This document shows, one piece after another, positions 3,502 to 62,881 of a DNA stretch of 64,000 bases. Numbering within the stretch: position 1 is the stretch's first letter; each line of letters starts with the position of its first letter. The notes under the pieces are model-generated. The model ran no database searches. It saw only the letters and a list, made by a program, of their open reading frames with translations, and was not told where the DNA came from. Origin of the DNA: a virus; the IMG/VR virus record IMGVR_UViG_3300029813_000255, positions 1 through 64,000 of that record. One strand, 5' to 3'. Made by a program: the position numbers and the translations under genes.

Positions 3502-4239
3502 ATGAGTGAAGAAAAAATAATAGATGAAGACGAATTAGATGGTTTGCTTGAAGAAGCAAAAGGAGAGAGTACAGAGCAAGCCGGGACTGTAAAAGAGCCA
3601 GAACTTGAACTTGAATTGGAGCCAGAAAGTCAGGGAGGGGAAAGTAGAGATTTGAAAGTAGAGGAAGAGCCAAGTACAGGACAAAAGGAAGTTGTACTGT
3701 CCGAAATGGTTTCTACAAATACACCAGAACAGCTACAACAGCCACGGGAAGCTATACAGCCAATAACACCGCAAACCGGATTAGTAGCACCTGTTTGTTC
3801 GGTTCAAGAATCAGTTAGGATTTTCAAGGAATTTGAGCAGGCAAAGAAAGAAATTCTTAGTGCTAAGGATGTACTGTGGATAGGAAGTGATGGAAGACCG
3901 GCAATTGAGGGAGAGGGAAGTCCACATATAAAAAGAAGTGGTTGGAGAAAGCTTGCAAGATTCTTTGGTCTGAGTTGGAATATTGAAGATATTGAAAGGA
4001 TGGATATGCGATCAGGAGGCTATATGTATAAAGTACGTGTAAAGGTATGGCATCCGGCAGGGGCTTCAGTTGTTTCTGAAGGACTGGCGTCGTCACGTGA
4101 CAAATTCTTCACGAAGGGTAATAAGATAGAACCAGCAGAAGAAAATATTGTAATGAAAGCTGAGACAGTTGCAATAAACAGAGCAATAAGTGATATATTG
4201 GGAAGTGGTGAAGTATCAGGAGAAGAGACAGTAGATTAA
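3502..4239 (+). CDS. Putative ssDNA-annealing/recombination protein (Rad52/Sak-like fold) with acidic N-terminal tail
   Basis: KRSGWRKLARFFGLS...YKVRVKV...EGLASS...MKAETVAINRAISD pattern typical of viral annealing proteins. Confidence 0.55.
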   Translation: MSEEKIIDEDELDGLLEEAKGESTEQAGTVKEPELELELEPESQGGESRDLKVEEEPSTGQKEVVLSEMVSTNTPEQLQQPREAIQPITPQTGLVAPVCSVQESVRIFKEFEQAKKEILSAKDVLWIGSDGRPAIEGEGSPHIKRSGWRKLARFFGLSWNIEDIERMDMRSGGYMYKVRVKVWHPAGASVVSEGLASSRDKFFTKGNKIEPAEENIVMKAETVAINRAISDILGSGEVSGEETVD

Positions 4240-4250
4240 AGCTTTATATA
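4238..4250 (+). promoter_or_regulatory. Archaeal BRE-TATA promoter of the RAMP cassette
   Basis: AAAGCTTTATATA. Same motif class at 15711, 29471, 32553, 41124, 42799, 52667, 55610, 61591, 63296 (+) and 15820, 25551, 28751 (-). Confidence 0.7.
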
Positions 4251-4282
4251 CTACTAACTTCTATTGTTGCATAGTGGTAAGC

Positions 4283-4465
4283 ATGAATAGTAAAGAAGTA
4301 TTGTATAAAATAAGAAGAGTGACTATATCAGAAAAGGCAAAGAAAACGTACATCGCTTTAGAAGACGAAAATGGAGAAACAGCAGGAACACTGAGTTTGA
4401 GAGGGAAGAAGGAAGGAATGATCGGAATGAAAGAAGTTAGGATATTAGGAGAGGAAGATGAGTGA
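4283..4465 (+). CDS. Small hypothetical protein, first gene of the RAMP cassette
   Basis: ATG about 30 nt after the TATA box; overlaps the RAMP gene start. Confidence 0.55.
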   Translation: MNSKEVLYKIRRVTISEKAKKTYIALEDENGETAGTLSLRGKKEGMIGMKEVRILGEEDE

Positions 4466-5003
4466 GAAGTTTAAGGTAGAAATAAGAGGAACGAGACCTT
4501 TATTGATGAATTCTCCGGCAAATATATTGGAGAATCAAACAACAAAGCGATCAAGAGAAGACATAACTCATAAAGAAGAAGCAGAAAAAGTTTTATATAA
4601 AGATAAGGATAACAAGCCAATTGTTCCTGCTCTAAATATTTTAACTTGTTTAAGAGATTCAGCAGTAAACTTTAAAGTTCCAGGTAGAGGTAAAAAGACA
4701 TTTAAGAACTTTATTTTTGCGGGATTGCGTATTGAACCAGAGCAAATCTCTATTATTTCAAGCAACGGGTGGAATGTAGATATACGAACTGTTGTGATAA
4801 ACCGAGGACGAGTTCCAAAAATAAGACCAAGATTTGATGAATGGAATTTAGAGTTTCAGATAGAAATACTCGATCCTATTATCACAGCGACAAATTTGAA
4901 GCAGATCTTAGTTGATGCCGGAAAATTTAACGGGCTACTGGATTTCAGACCTTTATTTGGTCTTTTTGAAGTGATAAAGTTCGAGAAGGTTAAAAGTGAG
5001 TAG
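4458..5003 (+). CDS. Stand-alone Cas7/RAMP-like RNA-binding protein (Vipr-like)
   Basis: Beta1 KVEIRGTRPLLMN, PIVPALNILTCLRDSA helix, RPRFDEW strand, C-terminal Gly loop AGKFNGLLDFRPLFGLFEV; adjacent pentamer array. Confidence 0.75.
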   Translation: MSEKFKVEIRGTRPLLMNSPANILENQTTKRSREDITHKEEAEKVLYKDKDNKPIVPALNILTCLRDSAVNFKVPGRGKKTFKNFIFAGLRIEPEQISIISSNGWNVDIRTVVINRGRVPKIRPRFDEWNLEFQIEILDPIITATNLKQILVDAGKFNGLLDFRPLFGLFEVIKFEKVKSE

Positions 5004-5298
5004 GGAAGATATACATATAACAAATCTGGAAGTAGTAGTAAAAGAATATCTTGATAAAAATAGAATAGATTATATATTCCAATTTCCAACCAGAACAGGT
5101 TTCGTAATAGATTTTGTTATACCGAATAAGAAAGTAGCAATAGAGGTAGATGGAAATGTTTGGCATAGTAGTAAGGAAGCAATAAAACGAGATAGGTTCA
5201 AGGATTATCAACTAAAGAAAGAAGGTTGGAAGGTGGTGAGAATCAAGGAAGAAGAGATAAATAGTTTAGATAGTTTACTCTTACCTGTTATTAGGTGA
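4996..5298 (+). CDS. DUF559/Vsr-like PD-(D/E)xK endonuclease
   Basis: IDFVIPNKKVAIEVDGNVWH...RDRFKD..LKKEGWKVVRI. Confidence 0.85.
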   Translation: MSREDIHITNLEVVVKEYLDKNRIDYIFQFPTRTGFVIDFVIPNKKVAIEVDGNVWHSSKEAIKRDRFKDYQLKKEGWKVVRIKEEEINSLDSLLLPVIR

Positions 5299-5395
5299 GC
5301 AAGGCGGAGCGTGGCGCTGCACGGCTCGGTAAGGCGATGTTCGGCTTGGCTTGGAACGGCAAAGCGGGGCGGGGTAAGGCTTGGTTTGGCATGGA
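5296..5395 (+). repeat. Array of 20 NN-GGY-type pentamers
   Basis: tgAGC aaGGC ggAGC gtGGC gcTGC acGGC tcGGT aaGGC gaTGT tcGGC ttGGC ttGGA acGGC aaAGC ggGGC ggGGT aaGGC ttGGT ttGGC atGGA. Position-4 G is invariant and 13/20 units end in GGY; GC-rich island in an AT-rich genome. Confidence 0.92.
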
Positions 5396-5430
5396 AGAGA
5401 AGGAGACATTTTTCTCCTTCTCTTATTTTA
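5395..5430 (+). terminator. Perfect 12-bp hairpin plus T-tract
   Basis: AAGAGAAGGAGA-catttt-TCTCCTTCTCTT then ATTTTA. Confidence 0.7.
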
Positions 5431-5446
5431 ATATATAAGAAATAAT

Positions 5447-5557
5447 GGGTACGAAAAACCAAGTTATCGTTGCTTGGTGTAGATAAGAAGAAATACTGGT
5501 AGTCTTATTGAAACCAACAGAGGACGCTTTGAGGAGGTGCAAACCCTCCCGTACCCA
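5447..5557 (+). ncRNA. tRNA-like structured element
   Basis: 7-bp acceptor-like stem GGGTACG/CGTACCC plus A; T-arm GGAGG-TGCAAAC-CCTCC directly before it; two inner hairpins; no canonical D or anticodon arm. Confidence 0.5.
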
Positions 5558-5563
5558 ATAAAT

Positions 5564-5800
5564 ATGAACGGAATAATGTTATACAAAGCAAAATTAGGAT
5601 TTCTTCAACTGAGAACTGCAAAAGCATTGACAAATAAACTTCAAGGAGAAGGTATTGTTAAGACTGCAAAAGTCTATCTTCCTGGAGTAGGTATCAATAC
5701 TTTTGTTGAAAATTGTTCTGAAAAGGGAAAGATTATTGTAGAGAGATACTTTAAGAATTGGACTCCGAATAAGATTGAATGGAAAGAAGAAAATGAGTGA
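5564..5800 (+). CDS. Hypothetical protein
   Basis: ORF; ATG 5564 preferred over GTG 5537, which lies inside the tRNA-like fold. Confidence 0.5.
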   Translation: MNGIMLYKAKLGFLQLRTAKALTNKLQGEGIVKTAKVYLPGVGINTFVENCSEKGKIIVERYFKNWTPNKIEWKEENE

Positions 5801-36740: not shown

Positions 36741-37187
36741 ATGGAAAGAAAGAACAACATGGACGCATTACTTCTTGATAAAGAATGGTTACAGCGGAAA
36801 TATACTAAAGAAAAATGCAGTGTTGATGATATTGCTAATTTGTTAAAATGCAGTACTCATTCGGTACGCGATGCAATATCCCACCATAATATACTGGTGC
36901 ATAGTAACAGAGAAAACGACGTTATTAAACCGTTATATCCAAAGAAGCACAATGAAATGAAAACCATAATAATGTGGCTGTGTGGTCTATGGAGTTTAGG
37001 ACTCGGATTCCGAATGTCTTTAGAGCTGTTGCTATCAGATGGTTGGATTCACGTGCCACAGCACCCATTGAACATCTATTTCGATTTTATCCCTCTCTGC
37101 GTGTTTGGATTAATAACAGTATGGTTTCAAACTAAGGAATTGTTTAAGGTGGTACAAAAGAAAGGATGGGTGGATGCAACAGAATGA
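36741..37187 (+). CDS. HTH domain fused to two TM helices
   Basis: KEWLQRKY...SVDDIANLLKCS..SVR; hydrophobic C-terminal half. Confidence 0.55.
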   Translation: MERKNNMDALLLDKEWLQRKYTKEKCSVDDIANLLKCSTHSVRDAISHHNILVHSNRENDVIKPLYPKKHNEMKTIIMWLCGLWSLGLGFRMSLELLLSDGWIHVPQHPLNIYFDFIPLCVFGLITVWFQTKELFKVVQKKGWVDATE

Positions 37188-40100
37188 GAATGAAATGGCT
37201 TTTTGTTGTTGTGCTTTTGTGTTTTATAATGAGTACAGTTAGTGGTGCTGCTGAATTTAAAGATACTGTACAATATCATACGGCATTATCGGAATCATGG
37301 TCTGGAGATGGAACTATCGTGAACTATCCTGCTGCATATCCATATTCTAAAGCGATAGAGCTTTATTCCGGTGGTTTAAAGTCCGCAACAACTATTAACA
37401 AAACTTTAAGCGACTATTGGTCTTTTTATGTACGTGATCATAGTGGTACCGATTATGGAGATGAATTTTTGGGTGTTTTGTTTTATGATGAAGATGGTGG
37501 TTTGATACCAAGTGGACATATTTCCATGTTTTGGGGGGGTAATGATGCTTATGTTTTACGTGAAGTACACTTAACTACAAATATTCAACATATTGGACAT
37601 TCTGGTTATATAGAATTACAACGTGAAGGTGATCAAATGTATTTACGAGTTGATGGAGTAGATAAAGGTAGTTTAGGACCATGTACGAAAAGACCGGCGT
37701 ATATGCGAATATCTAATAATCGTGCTCACAGCAGTAAGTATATCGCTACTCGTTTTGATTCAATAACCACTGGAGATGGTATTGTGGGTATAGGACACCA
37801 AGCTAATCCTTTACATAGCGTTACAGAAGTTGCAAATAACGAATTGGATGTAGAATGGACATTAAAATCTATACCATTTAGTGAATACACAAATTCGCAA
37901 TACGATATGAAAGTAAAACGGGCTACATGGAATGAATTTTATAATGTGACTACTATAAAGGCAGCAGGAGATTCAGTAACTTTACCACGAGGATTTGTTA
38001 AATACAATTGGTCAAGTTTGTTTCAAGCAAATCATTTTGGATTGTATTGGTTTGAAACATATAAAAGTGGTAGCGGAGAACCAGAATTGATAGATCAAGA
38101 TTGGATTTTCTATAAAGATATAGGCGAACCTTCCACAATAAACATAGAAGACACAGAATACGCAATAGGTGAAGCAATGAATATATCTTATTACATAGAT
38201 TCTCCTGACTTCGGAGCAAACCAATACAAGATACAGATTTTTGATGCAACGGGACAGCTCAAAGACGAACGTGTTTTGACTATGCAAGCAGCCACAGAGC
38301 AAATCACATCTACAATAGACTGGGAAGAAGGTATGTTATATGCCGTTTTGGTGAAGGATACGAAACCAGCGATTATAGAAGACCCACCGGAAGATATTAT
38401 AGATTTAGCTTATGACTTTTGCACACTTTCAAATGTAATTTATATTACGGGAAAAGTGTATGATGCTTCCAATGCTGATAATTTAGTTGATGGAACGCTA
38501 TTAGATAATGTATCGTTGAATTGGACACAAGCAGGCACTATTTACAACACTACTTCAGATGCTAACGGCAATTACGAATTTACTGATCCTACTACACTTT
38601 TGGAAATAGAATGGTTTCAGGATGTTCCGATAACAGTACACGCAGAGAAAACGGGGTACACACACTCAGATTTCGATATGACTATAATTAAAGCGGGACG
38701 ATACACAGTAGATATTTATATGACACCGCCCTACGATTATGAAAACATATCTATTTCGGGTGTTGTCGCCGATGATATATTTCATCAAGCAATACCATAT
38801 GCCGAAGTACATATATGGAATGCTACGTGGTCTAATACAACATATACTAATACGTGGGGTTGGTATGAATTCAATAATCTTACAAACGGCACCTATAACA
38901 TGTATGCAAAGAAGGAAACATATAGACAAAGTGGTACAATACAAGTAAGTGCATGGAATATGTCATTAACGTTAGATAGTTGTGATACTTTAGATTACGT
39001 GGAATCAACTTTAGATACCTGTGACAGCGTAACAGGATGGAATTCGGATAATACGTTAACATTAAATACCACTGATTACATAAAAGGAACAGGATCGTTA
39101 CAGAGTGTAGGTACAAATACAATGGATTTCAATAAGACTTTTTCCGCTTTCAACTCTAATGTAACAAAGGAGGGATATTTCTATTTCTATTCAAAAATAG
39201 ACAACACAACAAATATAAGTTCAGTGAATGTAACAGTCACACTGAGTAGTAATGCAACAGGGACAACAGATACGTTAGTGTGGGAAATAAACAAAACACT
39301 TTTTACTGATACATGGAATCTTACTTTTTTGGAGTTGTCACAAGCAGTGGAAACGGGTACGTGTGATTTATCAGCAATTCGTTTCTTTGAATTAGAAAGC
39401 ACAAAATCTGCGAGTATCACTACAAAAATAGACTTTTTAGCGTTTATCGAATATGTTGATTGGAATTCTAATATTAATCTATCGCTTGATACGTCAGACA
39501 AACAAGAAGGTACAGCTTCTATATTAGCGAGCGGTAAAGCATGGATACCTGGTTCCTACGATCATTATTTTGGTTGGTCCCCCGGTGGAACAATACCTCC
39601 TCCGCCAGATGTACCCATTCCTGAATATTGGGTTGACCGATATTGGAGTGCACCCCCACCGGGAGCAAACAGTTTTTCATCATCAAATGAACTGGGACGG
39701 TTACAAATATGGTATAAACCTGACCATACAAAAGATCGTGATATTATATTAGCTTCCGGCGATACTACAAATTATTTGTACTGGCAAGATGTTGGTACTG
39801 TGGGTTCGTGGAATTTAGAACGTTTATTCTTTAAAGATGCATATGAAAATGGAACTATGAATTTTGGTGGAATACAATGGTTTGTTTTGTTGGGAAATCG
39901 TTCGGGTAGTGCAGATGCAGAGGATCGTATAGACAATATAGAATTAGTACAAACAGGAGGAACACGTCAAAACTTCTTTTTGGGCAAGTACTACGATTTA
40001 ACAGTTCATGCTAAAGATATGGATACCAGGTATACAATTACTTCATTCACAGCTATATTAGATAGTACAACAGTAGTCGAGACAACAACTGGTGCGATTG

Positions 40101-41125
40101 TTTTTCCGAATGTGACCTATGGTATCTATCCTTTAGAAGTCAGTGCAAATGGTTACTACACAAACAAGCAATACGTTTTTATGGGACAGGATACAGAACA
40201 AACAGTCTATCTCACAAAAATAGAGAATGTCAGTACTACTGGTGTAGGACAAGCTTACGCGCCAATTCCAGTTGAATTTCGTGTAATAAATATAGGTGGA
40301 ATTCCAAAAAGTAATGTAAACGTGTCGGCTGTTGGTATTGAAACTACAATGGGTGCATGGTCATGGCTCCAAGATATTTTTGGATATTCAAGTAAGGTGG
40401 AGCTTCAAAACACAAGCATGAACGGTACAACTGACAGTATGGGACACTTAACCTTTGTAATGGTAGAAACTATTAAATACAAAATAGACTTCACAAAACC
40501 GTCAGAAGGCATAAATGAAACCTTGTATTTCTATCCGAAAGAGAAACAATACACAATTGTTGTCACATCTCCCCGTGCGCCAAGTATGATAGATTATGTT
40601 GACTGGAATCTCAGTGTTCAACCTGAAAATTCAACGCATTCAAACCTGACTCTCTTCTACAACGATACTATGGCTCAAACGAGTAATTTGAGGTTCTTTG
40701 TTAAAGACGAAAACAGAAGCGAAATTTACAATCAATCATTTAGTAGTGAAAGTATTATTAGCGTTGGTTACCTCGTGAATAAGTCATCTGGTCAATCGTA
40801 CTTTTGGGGGTTTAATGTGACTCACGATGAGTTTGATGAATTCAAAGCGACAAAAGCTATTACTTTCAAGAGTAGGTTGATTGATCTGAAACTCAAACCC
40901 GGAAATGAAAATTACTACACCTGGATTTCTGTTTGCTTACTTGTTATGATCTCTACATTATTTTCTGCCGTAACGAGTAAATTTGGGTACGTTGTGATTC
41001 CGTTTATGGGTGGATTTTTCTATTGGATTGGCTGGCTGGAAATTTCTGCTGTCATTCTTAGTGTTGTTATGTTTTTCGGAGTCATTTTATATATGGGCAA
41101 GAAAGAAAGGGAGAGTGGACTATAA
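37166..41125 (+). CDS. Large secreted, C-terminally membrane-anchored virion/adhesin glycoprotein
   Basis: Signal peptide, carboxypeptidase-regulatory-like Ig domains, many N-x-S/T sequons, three C-terminal TM helices. Confidence 0.8.
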   Translation: MGGCNRMRMKWLFVVVLLCFIMSTVSGAAEFKDTVQYHTALSESWSGDGTIVNYPAAYPYSKAIELYSGGLKSATTINKTLSDYWSFYVRDHSGTDYGDEFLGVLFYDEDGGLIPSGHISMFWGGNDAYVLREVHLTTNIQHIGHSGYIELQREGDQMYLRVDGVDKGSLGPCTKRPAYMRISNNRAHSSKYIATRFDSITTGDGIVGIGHQANPLHSVTEVANNELDVEWTLKSIPFSEYTNSQYDMKVKRATWNEFYNVTTIKAAGDSVTLPRGFVKYNWSSLFQANHFGLYWFETYKSGSGEPELIDQDWIFYKDIGEPSTINIEDTEYAIGEAMNISYYIDSPDFGANQYKIQIFDATGQLKDERVLTMQAATEQITSTIDWEEGMLYAVLVKDTKPAIIEDPPEDIIDLAYDFCTLSNVIYITGKVYDASNADNLVDGTLLDNVSLNWTQAGTIYNTTSDANGNYEFTDPTTLLEIEWFQDVPITVHAEKTGYTHSDFDMTIIKAGRYTVDIYMTPPYDYENISISGVVADDIFHQAIPYAEVHIWNATWSNTTYTNTWGWYEFNNLTNGTYNMYAKKETYRQSGTIQVSAWNMSLTLDSCDTLDYVESTLDTCDSVTGWNSDNTLTLNTTDYIKGTGSLQSVGTNTMDFNKTFSAFNSNVTKEGYFYFYSKIDNTTNISSVNVTVTLSSNATGTTDTLVWEINKTLFTDTWNLTFLELSQAVETGTCDLSAIRFFELESTKSASITTKIDFLAFIEYVDWNSNINLSLDTSDKQEGTASILASGKAWIPGSYDHYFGWSPGGTIPPPPDVPIPEYWVDRYWSAPPPGANSFSSSNELGRLQIWYKPDHTKDRDIILASGDTTNYLYWQDVGTVGSWNLERLFFKDAYENGTMNFGGIQWFVLLGNRSGSADAEDRIDNIELVQTGGTRQNFFLGKYYDLTVHAKDMDTRYTITSFTAILDSTTVVETTTGAIVFPNVTYGIYPLEVSANGYYTNKQYVFMGQDTEQTVYLTKIENVSTTGVGQAYAPIPVEFRVINIGGIPKSNVNVSAVGIETTMGAWSWLQDIFGYSSKVELQNTSMNGTTDSMGHLTFVMVETIKYKIDFTKPSEGINETLYFYPKEKQYTIVVTSPRAPSMIDYVDWNLSVQPENSTHSNLTLFYNDTMAQTSNLRFFVKDENRSEIYNQSFSSESIISVGYLVNKSSGQSYFWGFNVTHDEFDEFKATKAITFKSRLIDLKLKPGNENYYTWISVCLLVMISTLFSAVTSKFGYVVIPFMGGFFYWIGWLEISAVILSVVMFFGVILYMGKKERESGL

Positions 41126-62745: not shown

Positions 62746-62747
62746 AA

Positions 62748-62881
62748 TGAATTAAGTTTTCTTTATTCAAAAAATCACGGAGCTGTAAGATAGTTCTAAA
62801 GTAGAATTAAGTTTTCTTTATTCTACTCCATAATTAATATATACTTATTATGCGGTAGAATTAAGTTTTCTTTATTCTACT
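62748..62881. repeat. Three copies of an imperfect palindrome, 54-55 bp period
   Basis: (GTA)GAATTAAGTTTTCTTTATTC(TAC), cores at 62749, 62804, 62858. Confidence 0.9.

Follow-up and report, generated by a model that had tools for sequence, protein, structure and literature searches.

VIPR (Viral Interference Programmable Repeat) systems are RNA-guided DNA binders described in 2026 (bioRxiv 10.64898/2026.04.26.720920 and.720927). These preprints present them as a phage silencing weapon against satellites and prophages and assign nuclease forms to cellular defence; they also list archaeal viruses and nuclease-bearing types. Residues H17, R138, D177, W178, and R179 of the Vipr protein from phage SUSP1 hold the GGY bases, and the NN dinucleotides pair with DNA reading NNx NNx, a code that skips 1 nt (bioRxiv 10.64898/2026.04.26.720920 and.720927). 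The authors of the same preprints propose that CRISPR originated from viral VIPR.

Here we describe a locus in an 80.6-kb virus genome, probably that of an archaeal virus, of which the first 64,000 nucleotides are referred to as the window. A preliminary description had linked this locus to a GGY/NN guide concept under the VIPR name. The concept is real, as the two preprints document, and the locus has its defining features.

The cassette, its guide tract, and its hairpins

We compared two insertion sites with their empty counterparts, and this comparison identifies window positions 4240-5430 as a mobile cassette of about 1.2 kb. In the present genome the cassette follows orf245. Three relatives (L336, L337, and L338) are cassette-free here, with orf301 and orf245 followed directly by orf118/primpol. 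In three other genomes (L081, L083, and L084) the same cassette directly follows the stop codon of a helicase gene, and the DNA downstream of it matches the DNA after the helicase gene in the present genome. Homology to the L084 cassette starts at window position 4236, although the genomic site is different. The L001 and L002 genomes have no helicase homologue.

Within the cassette, the list of open reading frames (ORFs) gives the order up63-vipr-vap-vrRNA (Table 1). The ORFs are as previously outlined, a small one of 63 or 60 aa and two that encode proteins of 181 and 100 aa, and a TATA-like box would act as the promoter. Searches of Pfam and PHROG gave no match for up63, which is found in the closest relatives only and retains 82% identity in L083 and L084 despite different flanking genes.

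Table 1. Features of the cassette and of the adjacent orf245 (window coordinates)
Feature	Positions	Strand	Basis or detail
Own diverged copy of the predicted guide target, in orf245 (3502-4239)	4078..4134	+	Codon-phased, 105-160 bp from cassette
Cassette left edge and TATA-like box TTTATATA (4243-4250)	4240..4273	+	Right after orf245 stop codon (4237-4239)
up63, 63 aa from GTG (60 aa from ATG at 4283)	4274..4465	+	Travels with the cassette
vipr, 181-aa Cas7-like protein (minimal RAMP), predicted to form a polymer along the vrRNA	4458..5003	+	Homology, predicted fold
vap, 100-aa stand-alone EDxHD/Vsr-like nuclease catalytic domain	4996..5298	+	Pfam, profile, AF2, Foldseek
5' hairpin, CTTACCTG / loop TTAT / TAGGTGAG	5280..5299	+	8 bp including 2 G-U pairs
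Predicted vrRNA guide region, 19 NN-GGY units	5301..5395	+	Sequence and pentamer parsing
3' hairpin and T-rich run	5395..5430	+	Perfect 12 bp, 5395-5406 with 5413-5424, loop CATTTT

The guide tract carries the NN series AA GG GT GC AC TC AA GA TC TT TT AC AA GG GG AA TT TT AT. Position 4 of the pentamer is G in every unit (19/19), position 3 is G in 15 of 19, and position 5 is C or T in 17 of 19, while positions 1 and 2 vary. Twenty pentamers had been counted before; 19 of these stand as true units, and the would-be twentieth, TGAGC at 5296-5300, is instead the 3' arm of the 5' hairpin. The tract is indeed the GC-rich island it was said to be, with 64% GC against 36% for the genome. It is the sole NNGGY tract in the 80.6-kb genome, with a score of 39.2 compared with 10.5 for the runner-up and 11.9 for the highest value in 30 shuffled genomes. 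Tandem Repeats Finder reported no repeat in 5000-5700, because just three of the five pentamer positions recur. A permissive Rfam scan of 4200-5600 returned no family at or above its gathering score. The motif GATGAG in the 5' hairpin had raised the suspicion of a hammerhead, and none was found in that scan. A search for sequencing runs that contain the locus listed no RNA run, and two DNA runs shared just 6-7% of the sampled words with it.

The 5' hairpin lies directly ahead of the repeats and overlaps the vap stop codon. Its call rests on single-sequence folds, in which its energy is -8.9 kcal/mol, compared with -2.7 for shuffled sequences (RNAfold). Nearly every tract in the clade is preceded by a hairpin at the equivalent position, with differing stems (CTCATC/GATGAG, CCCTC/GAGGG, and CTCTC/GAGAG). 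Covariation is weak: when 19 such regions were aligned with MAFFT, RNAalifold recovered just 4 pairs, because the loops vary in length. At the other end, the closing hairpin is perfectly paired, as the preliminary description had it, and has an energy of -18.5 kcal/mol. Together with the T-rich run, it probably terminates the vrRNA or caps its 3' end and probably also marks the right edge of the cassette. In L146, L147, L087, and L001 the final tract is likewise followed by a strong hairpin, although this 3' hairpin is not conserved.

The Vipr and Vap proteins

Homology and structure prediction place the 181-aa gene and its tract in the VIPR family as a true member. The sole PDB sequence match of the protein is 36pp_D, annotated as 'SUSP1 Vipr protein', with an E value of 6.1e-8 from the single sequence. 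A family profile gives the same match at 1.8e-21, covering residues 3-176, again with no other PDB match. The protein also matches phrog_4652 (4.6e-21), and no Pfam model matched it. The Cas7/RAMP layout that had been read from the sequence is thus backed by homology to SUSP1 Vipr, and the AF2 model (pLDDT 89.3, pTM 0.83) likewise returned Cas7-type structures in Foldseek. The top matches were type VII Cas7, Csm3, and Cmr4 (probability 1.0, TM 0.55-0.64). At E <= 1e-3 the search gave 97 PDB matches; all among the matches listed are chains of CRISPR effector complex subunits. The protein fits a minimal RAMP fold with one RRM core, in which, based on alignment, the long beta-hairpin at residues 106-126 would correspond to the thumb, and the conserved C-terminal G-x-L-D-F-R-P-x-F-G loop to the G-loop.

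Residues N18, R123, D162, F163, and R164 align with the SUSP1 residues H17, R138, D177, W178, and R179, respectively. These GGY-contact positions are invariant or almost so in 34 homologues, and N18 is H in several clade members. The earlier suggestion of one subunit per GGY, with the NN bases displayed, agrees with cryo-EM of SUSP1 and, with the GGY-binding residues kept, would by analogy apply here as well.

The association of vipr with pentamer tracts, which the preliminary description had proposed as a check, extends across the family. All 80 of 80 homologue loci in IMG/VR have same-strand NNGGY tracts flanking vipr, with variable NN and constant GGY. The VIPR paper sets the threshold at >=4 tandem YNNGG units beside vipr; here there are 19 on the same strand. 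Among deposited phages, tblastn recovered SUSP1-like Felixounavirus Vipr homologues at 27-31% identity, and the close relatives found here come from metagenomes only, none from NCBI. As had been remarked, the window contains no CRISPR-like repeat-spacer array. Apart from the Cas7-like Vipr, a scan of nearby and large ORFs found no cas families.

Vap had been described as a DUF559 nuclease, and its match to PF04480/DUF559 (1.7e-8) passes the cut-off, as does a stronger one to PF18741 (MTES_1575; 2.3e-12). Its family profile matches 3r3p, the catalytic domain of I-Bth0305I, with an E value of 4.3e-11. The AF2 model (pLDDT 87) has 3r3p as its first Foldseek match (TM 0.7, 33% identity), followed by Vsr. 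Alignment of 14 homologues shows five invariant residues (D39, E50, D52, H57, and D66). D39, H57, and D66 align with I-Bth0305I D196, H213, and D222, and D52 aligns with N208 (Vsr H64). E12, which is Glu in most homologues, aligns with E170. The alignment with the catalytic domain takes up all 100 aa, and Vap has no NUMOD/HTH recognition region. The vap gene is a free-standing ORF that overlaps the vipr stop codon and is not borne by an intron or intein. Because the NUMOD/HTH region and intron or intein residence are both absent, Vap shares the EDxHD catalytic domain yet is not a full member of that family. Profiles and the predicted fold thus characterise it as an intact homing-endonuclease-type catalytic domain without a recognition domain.

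Vap accompanies Vipr in every fetched relative that has a Vipr identity of >=43% and sequence kept downstream of vipr. Across the clade, vap, vipr, and the vrRNAs occur in four different gene orders. An interaction between Vipr and Vap is a proposal; the characterised VIPR systems act through silencing.

Guide matches and orf245 alleles

In silico, the 1-nt-skip code holds in this clade. The L081 guide matches 27 of 32 positions (84%) at genome position 68649, within the helicase gene, when 1 nt is skipped. Skips of 0, 2, and 3 yield no more than 20-21, which is at chance; 3000 shuffles average 20.6 +/- 0.8 and peak at 25, so that none reaches 27. The L082 guide matches 38 of 48 positions (79%) at window position 40421, also with a skip of 1 and with 11 consecutive perfect units; the remaining skips score 27, again at chance (null 27.6 +/- 0.9), and 0/3000 shuffles reach 38. 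Both matches are codon-phased, with the wobble position skipped. In addition, the L081 guide fits the helicase of the present virus better than its own helicase (27/32 against 22/32, or 27/34 against 22/34 when scored over 34 positions).

For the guide of the present cassette, the best skip-1 match in its own genome is the segment of orf245 listed in Table 1, with 24/38 overall and 20/28 in units 2-15. The score of 24/38 is at chance level genome-wide and has z = 3.0 inside the 3-kb flanks. A target in the virus's own genome was rejected on this basis, with no self-targeting above chance.

Decoded by the skip-1 rule, the guide reads G-V-A-T-S-K-D-S-F-F-T-K-G-G, and units 2-15 allow GVATS[KN][DE]S[FL][FL]T[KN]GG. 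Four of the 76 aligned orf245 homologues (P0123, P0133, P0134, and P0139) read GVATSKDSFFTKGG, in which 14/14 residues are guide-compatible; these alleles are known as proteins, and their codons (e.g., AGY for Ser, as in L336) could lower the match at the DNA level. The virus's own orf245 reads GLASSRDKFFTKGN and retains 9/14 decoded residues. Five of the 14 decoded codons have diverged in it, which puts it below the matching level of the VIPR paper. At the DNA level, the orf245 alleles of cassette-free genomes match units 2-15 at 23-25/28 (82-89%), compared with 20/28 for the own allele. These comparisons indicate that the guide is aimed at the orf245 allele of cassette-free relatives and not at its own.

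The match is limited to part of the guide. No DNA was found that matches >=80% across all 19 units (best 27/38), and the 80% level is attained in units 2-15 only. Unit 1 and units 16-19 mismatch the actual orf245 alleles, the last four units (AA TT TT AT) fitting no allele; IMG/VR contains just two orf245 homologues. Four exact 8-unit seeds (units 1-8, 5-12, 9-16, and 12-19) hit 174 IMG/VR loci, with a best extension of 26/38, which is chance. The complete L001 and L002 genomes yielded no target for the guide, and tblastn of orf245 against deposited phages gave no match.

The sole other close orf245 homologue with a low-matching allele is P0122. Its genome probably also bears the cassette, because P0122 lies on a 2,238-bp contig, equal to the longest contig of Vipr P0002, which is 83% identical to the Vipr described here.

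Across guides, similarity to the flanks at z >= 3 was found for 5/34 guides of the Vap clade, compared with 3/267 other VIPR guides (Fisher p = 6e-4). In the arrays that carry several guides (L092, L137, and L095), flank similarity is lacking for most of them, and the target gene of the L082 guide is not known to adjoin the L082 cassette. Homing therefore cannot be the sole use of these guides.

Proposed mechanism, alternatives, and relation to known systems

We consider it quite probable, taking the explanation as a whole, that this locus is a VIPR and Vap cassette with a guide against a rival orf245 allele, likely serving RNA-guided homing. In this mechanism, the tract would be transcribed into a vrRNA of roughly 120 nt. 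As homology to SUSP1 suggests, Vipr would polymerise along this RNA into an RNP, each NNGGY unit being occupied by a single protomer. The GGY bases would be buried, and the 19 NN dinucleotides would be presented for pairing with DNA reading NNx NNx. During co-infection, the filament would mark the rival orf245 allele and recruit Vap, itself devoid of a DNA-binding domain, for cleavage. Repair off the cassette-bearing genome would then copy the cassette and the resistant allele by gene conversion, which would amount to RNA-guided homing. As a minimum outcome, the rival gene would be silenced or the rival genome damaged. More tentatively, and with somewhat less than even confidence, we suggest an RNA-guided homing endonuclease whose recognition and cutting functions reside in different components, acting as a natural guide-RNA gene drive among archaeal viruses with reciprocal targeting between cassette sites.

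The locus extends the VIPR family to a deep-branching, metagenome-only clade whose hosts are probably archaea. It also points to a new use, a self-propagating cassette with a guide against the allele of a neighbouring gene in rivals. If Vipr and vrRNA do deliver Vap, the locus would show how a homing endonuclease guided by protein can replace its recognition domain with RNA guidance, and the cassette would join TnpB/IscB as the second natural example in which guide RNAs spread the element encoding them. The pair would also be a compact programmable cutter (181 + 100 aa) that reads 2 of every 3 bases. For the proposal that CRISPR arose from VIPR, it would mean that cleavage was already coupled to Vipr in a virus, before any move to a host genome.

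The cassette could instead be a killer-plus-immunity pair that operates without gene conversion, which we regard as possible but rather doubtful. The guide, with or without cutting by Vap, would destroy or silence an important gene of competing relatives, and this gene would be the adjacent one simply because tight linkage holds the guide and the resistant allele together through recombination between co-infecting viruses. The L082 match at window 40421, perhaps not adjacent to the L082 cassette, fits this account, as does the suggestion of reciprocal targeting, with the L081 guide directed at the helicase of the present virus and the present guide at the L338-type orf245. The VIPR paper likewise reads nuclease-bearing types as target-destroying. 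Taken alone, however, this account leaves unexplained why one cassette occupies two sites, each beside its own target gene at 100-200 bp. Such adjacency at two sites is a signature of homing, and the homing and killer-plus-immunity models are compatible.

We judge it unlikely that the system only silences the rival orf245, with the 100-aa nuclease as a hitch-hiker, a free-standing homing endonuclease that relies on weak DNA specificity of its own to move itself and the vipr locus with it. Virus genomes often contain free-standing homing endonuclease genes, and the nearest relative of Vap is a protein-guided homing endonuclease. Characterised VIPR systems repress transcription, and that of SUSP1 represses satellite genes. 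Nevertheless, Vap lacks the NUMOD/HTH region that I-Bth0305I requires (PMC3239194). Its presence with vipr throughout the clade, even in relatives with a Vipr identity of 43% and across four gene orders, is unlike that of a recent passenger, and the guides also point to the insertion-proximal allele at two independent sites. Finally, it is very improbable that the tract is something other than a guide RNA, whether a GC-rich repeat arisen by chance, a stretch of coding sequence, a G-rich structure in the DNA, or a regulatory element: short ORFs of 44-47 aa do overlap it and both Tandem Repeats Finder and Rfam are silent, but a period of 5 is unfit for coding, the score lies far beyond shuffled genomes, tracts accompany vipr at all loci surveyed, and the tracts of relatives decode to genes under the published skip rule only.

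Of the known systems, type II VIPR (Escherichia phage SUSP1 and a Pseudomonas fulva prophage) shares with this locus a homologous effector, a tandem YNNGG guide, a virus-borne location, and the lack of a CRISPR array. It also shares the skip-1 code (in silico here) and coding-DNA targets with the wobble base skipped, without self-targeting. The published clades have 9-16 units, compared with one guide of 19 units here, and the vrRNA of the SUSP1 clade has a 3' pseudoknot tail, compared with a short 5' hairpin per tract and a plain 3' hairpin. Type II Vap is predicted to bind DNA and type II VIPR targets satellites or prophages, whereas here Vap is an EDxHD/Vsr-type nuclease domain and the cassette moves between sites with a guide against an allele of the neighbouring gene. 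Types III and V likewise combine Vipr and vrRNA with a putative nuclease, interpreted by the authors as a means of destroying the target; those systems are described as enriched in cellular defence islands, act against viruses, and have an HNH nuclease according to a supplementary legend, while the present one is virus-borne, Vsr/EDxHD-type, and directed against sister viruses. The clade may fall within one of the seven types of the paper. The preliminary description had supposed that a version from an archaeal virus, with a nuclease linked to it, might be undescribed. This is too broad, as archaeal viruses and nuclease-bearing VIPRs are already listed, but a virus-borne EDxHD/Vsr-type Vap aimed at a neighbour allele was not found in the VIPR papers searched.

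The I-Bth0305I/EDxHD family (PMC3239194) shares the catalytic domain and its Vsr-type active-site residues with Vap (E 4.3e-11, TM 0.7). Together with the free-standing T-even endonucleases ('intronless homing'), this family also shares a nearby target in a neighbour gene, patchy presence, and a diverged allele in the carrier. In contrast to I-Bth0305I, Vap lacks the NUMOD/HTH half and lies outside any intron or intein, and recognition would come in trans from the RNA-guided filament.

The Cas7 backbones of class 1 CRISPR-Cas systems (Csm3, Cmr4, and type VII Cas7) have the same RAMP fold and periodic binding of guide RNA, but with a period of 6 and 5 reading bases, compared with a period of 5, 2 reading bases, and no array for Vipr. 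In OMEGA systems (TnpB/IscB with omega RNA, in IS200/IS605), the guided nuclease is borne by the element, the guide corresponds to the element-free site, and cutting with recombination restores or spreads the element. The cassette is comparable as a mobile element that would have an RNA-guided nuclease and a guide matching the element-free site. The link between homing endonucleases and OMEGA is covered by a 2026 review (PMC13565253). OMEGA systems differ in having unrelated RuvC/HNH single effectors and contiguous guides and in residing in cellular transposons, whereas the cassettes described here reside in virus genomes.

Vipr protein, guide tract and layout of the locus

Taken together, the evidence makes it nearly certain that this locus is a VIPR (Viral Interference Programmable Repeat) system (bioRxiv 10.64898/2026.04.26.720920 and.720927), and VIPR as a system is already known. 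As described in the 2026 preprint, Vipr is a minimal RAMP protein, its vrRNAs are made of 9-16 YNNGG repeats whose NN dinucleotides read DNA with every third base skipped, and seven types with accessory vap genes occur mostly in phages and archaeal viruses. The companion cryo-EM paper places one protomer on each repeat and identifies the GGY-holding residues.

Against all PDB sequences, the 181-aa protein had one match only, the SUSP1 Vipr protein (E 6e-8), and a profile of 34 homologues matched the same protein over its full length (E 1.8e-21). The AlphaFold model (pLDDT 89) resembles Cas7-type subunits, namely type VII Cas7, Csm3, and Cmr4. Residues N18, R123, D162, F163, and R164 correspond to SUSP1 H17, R138, D177, W178, and R179 and are conserved in the family. 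NNGGY tracts lie immediately before and/or after the homologue gene, on the same strand, in 80/80 IMG/VR loci, and the window lacks a CRISPR array. The VIPR reading is supported by the SUSP1 match, the Cas7-like fold, the GGY residues, the tracts of the relatives, and the lack of an array. The preliminary description had pointed to a GGY/NN guide concept and proposed a lone Cas7/RAMP-like protein with no CRISPR array, to be checked by structure and by periodic tracts in homologues; the concept proved real and published in 2026, and this interpretation is supported.

Features of the cassette
Feature	Position	Strand	Source
TATA-like box TTTATATA	4243-4250	+	sequence
ORF of 63 aa	4274-4465	+	ORF list
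ORF of 181 aa (vipr)	4458-5003	+	ORF list
ORF of 100 aa (vap), overlapping the end of the 181-aa ORF	4996-5298	+	ORF list
8-bp hairpin at tract start, overlapping the stop codon of the 100-aa ORF	5280-5299	+	
vrRNA guide tract, 19 pentamers	5301-5395	+	
Perfect 12-bp hairpin at tract end, then T-rich run	5395-5406 with 5413-5424	+	

The same description had reported a GC-rich run of tandem GGY pentamers with variable NN, closed by a perfect 12-bp hairpin, and this was borne out, with 19 units counted here. In the frame N-N-G-G-Y, G occupies position 4 in 19/19 units and position 3 in 15/19, position 5 is C or T in 17/19, and positions 1-2 vary freely. Tract GC is 64% compared with 36% for the genome, and by tract score (39.2) the tract is unique in the genome, where the runner-up scored 10.5 and the maximum over 30 shuffled genomes was 11.9. 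The tract is presumably transcribed and loaded into Vipr. The cassette opens with the 63-aa ORF, which is restricted to the closest relatives and had no family match; it is 82% conserved between this virus and the related locus L084, more than Vipr (64%), and could be a regulator or partner of the VIPR system.

Accessory nuclease domain

The 100-aa protein, Vap, matches Pfam MTES_1575 and DUF559. A profile built from its family matches 3r3p, which is the catalytic domain of homing endonuclease I-Bth0305I (E 4.3e-11). The closest structure to its model (pLDDT 87) is likewise 3r3p (TM 0.7, 33% identity), followed by Vsr. Residues D39, H57, and D66 of Vap, which correspond to I-Bth0305I D196, H213, and D222, do not vary among 14 homologues, most of which also have Glu at E12, the position aligned with E170. 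By alignment, Vap has the predicted active-site residues of the Vsr/EDxHD type.

In every fetched relative with at least 43% Vipr identity that retains sequence downstream of vipr, vap adjoins vipr, and it is missing from the more distant VIPR loci fetched. Four gene orders occur: vipr-vrRNA-vap, vipr-vrRNA-vap-vrRNA, vipr-vap-vrRNA (this window), and vipr-vap followed by seven vrRNAs. The last unit and start of the 3' hairpin at 5391-5410 (GGCATGGAAGAGAAGG) resemble the tract-vap junction of loci L001 (4660-4680) and L086, in which the tract runs directly into the vap ATG (GGCATGGAAAGAAAC); this likeness may be left over from a rearrangement linking two of these orders, vipr-vrRNA-vap and vipr-vap-vrRNA. 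Short hairpins stand before nearly all tracts of the clade, with stems that vary by subclade (CTCATC/GATGAG, CCCTC/GAGGG, and CTCTC/GAGAG), whereas the SUSP1 clade has a 3' pseudoknot tail.

Virus genome and guide matches

The whole record is 80,611 bp with 141-bp direct terminal repeats, and the window is its first 64 kb. Genes lie almost all on one strand and encode a family B DNA polymerase, a primase-polymerase, helicases, glycosyltransferases, a radical SAM protein, and methylases. TATA-like boxes upstream of genes, together with homologues of neighbouring genes that are labelled Syntropharchaeia and Aenigmatarchaeota or lie on Guaymas sediment MAG contigs, hint indirectly at an archaeal host. 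At 62746-62881, a 27-nt palindromic repeat (GTAGAATTAAGTTTTCTTTATTCTAC) occurs three times, with the copies 54-55 nt apart; having three copies only, it resembles an iteron or operator set more than a CRISPR array.

We decoded the tracts of all fetched loci and scanned them over this genome; two guides, both of close relatives (L081 and L082), stood out. Units 2-17 of the L081 guide match genome positions 68649-68699 (4.6 kb past the window end; positions 4649-4699 of locus L217) at 27/32 NN positions, compared with 20-21 for other skip lengths; shuffled guides averaged 20.6 +/- 0.8 with a maximum of 25, and 0/3000 reached 27/32. The target is an SF2 helicase gene (genome 67707-68849, motif region HLFEEGMDIPEVDLVIL). 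Units 2-25 of the L082 guide match window 40421-40492 at 38/48 NN positions, including 11 consecutive perfect units (other skips 27; null 27.6 +/- 0.9; 0/3000 shuffles reached 38/48), within the ORF at 37166-41125 for a 1319-aa surface-type protein with a signal peptide and a C-terminal membrane segment. Both sites lie inside ORFs and are codon-phased, the skipped base being the wobble position. Judged by these matches, the published 1-nt-skip code works in this clade. Given the L082 match, the virus looks like a target of its relatives' VIPR systems.

The virus's own guide did not match anything significantly in the viral genome itself, the complete genomes of two relatives, or IMG/VR searched by exact seeds. 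Its best own-genome match, 24/38 at 4078-4134, is codon-phased and falls inside orf245, the gene directly upstream of the cassette, 105-160 bp before the stop. Taken as codons, units 2-15 spell G-V-A-T-S-[KN]-[DE]-S-[FL]-[FL]-T-[KN]-G-G, and the virus's own orf245 reads G-L-A-S-S-R-D-K-F-F-T-K-G-N, fitting at 9/14 residues. Among 76 aligned metagenomic homologues, four, known as proteins only, read G-V-A-T-S-K-D-S-F-F-T-K-G-G and fit at 14/14, and most others fit at 11-13/14. At the DNA level, four informative fetched alleles match units 2-15 at 23-25/28, compared with 20/28 for the own allele; no allele matches the last four units. The only other close homologue with a low-matching allele, P0122, is on a 2,238-bp contig, the same size as the longest contig of Vipr homologue P0002 (83% identical), from which we infer that the P0122 genome bears the cassette.

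The orf245 gene itself (3502-4239) is highly conserved in the virus group, with 60-86% identity over the C-terminal 150 aa among more than 70 metagenomic homologues. It had no match in Pfam and a weak one in PHROG; its C-terminal motif (…AETVAINRAISDILG) may resemble RecT-type annealing proteins.

Presence and absence of the cassette at two sites

We compared two insertion sites with their empty counterparts. In L336, L337, and L338, orf118/primase-polymerase comes straight after orf301-orf245, and vipr, vap, and the tract are all missing. L081, L083, and L084 carry the same cassette (small ORF 82% identical) immediately behind the stop codon of a helicase gene 57% identical to that of this virus, and the sequence after the cassette matches the DNA following this genome's helicase gene, where the junction is empty. 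Each site thus has the cassette in one of the two lineages and lacks it in the other, a presence/absence polymorphism at two sites that marks the cassette as mobile.

The L081 guide matches this virus's helicase at 27/34 and its own helicase at 22/34, at a site ~200 bp before the stop codon. As far as these alignments show, guides at both sites fit the insertion-proximal allele more closely in relatives that lack the cassette than in the carrier itself. Matches to the guide's own 3-kb flanks with z of at least 3 were found for 5/34 Vap-clade guides and 3/267 other VIPR guides (Fisher p = 6e-4), and these matches are codon-phased in adjacent ORFs.

Contig Ga0190286_1000051 (63.6 kb; L087 and L123) carries two vipr-vap-vrRNA units ~47 kb apart; one keeps only C-terminal vipr (residues 96-171) and may be a second, decayed insertion. 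Several Vipr and orf245 homologues have longest contigs of equal size: P0018/P0133 (26,505 bp), P0029/P0143 (25,338 bp), P0022/P0147 (20,277 bp), and P0019/P0153 (73,321 bp). P0019 is 99% identical to the Vipr of L084, a locus with its cassette at the helicase site. The equal contig sizes suggest viruses with the cassette at the helicase site and a susceptible orf245 allele; if so, those viruses and this one would target each other reciprocally.

Allele-directed targeting of sister viruses is the probable role of these guides. Nuclease-driven homing is a more tentative proposal, in which the filament would bring Vap to the target and cutting would lead to the cassette being copied. Two main rivals account for the cassette otherwise: silencing may be the sole VIPR activity, with the nuclease as a passenger, or the cassette may be a killer-plus-immunity pair kept together by linkage, with no gene conversion. 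Guides that hit distant genes, as that of L082 does, and arrays with multiple guides show that plain competition plays a part as well.

The close relatives identified in this analysis come from metagenome sources only. The word "homing" is not used in the VIPR papers searched, and "nuclease" is absent throughout the VIPR infection paper; the discovery paper places nucleases in cellular defence types, and its type list may include this clade. The homing proposal likens the cassette to free-standing homing endonuclease genes, in which the nuclease gene likewise neighbours the gene it targets, relatives lack the insertion, and the carrier's own allele is protected. I-Bth0305I requires its N-terminal NUMOD/HTH half to find its site (PMC3239194), whereas Vap is the catalytic domain alone, without that half; the recognition role of a homing endonuclease would here have passed to an RNA-guided filament.
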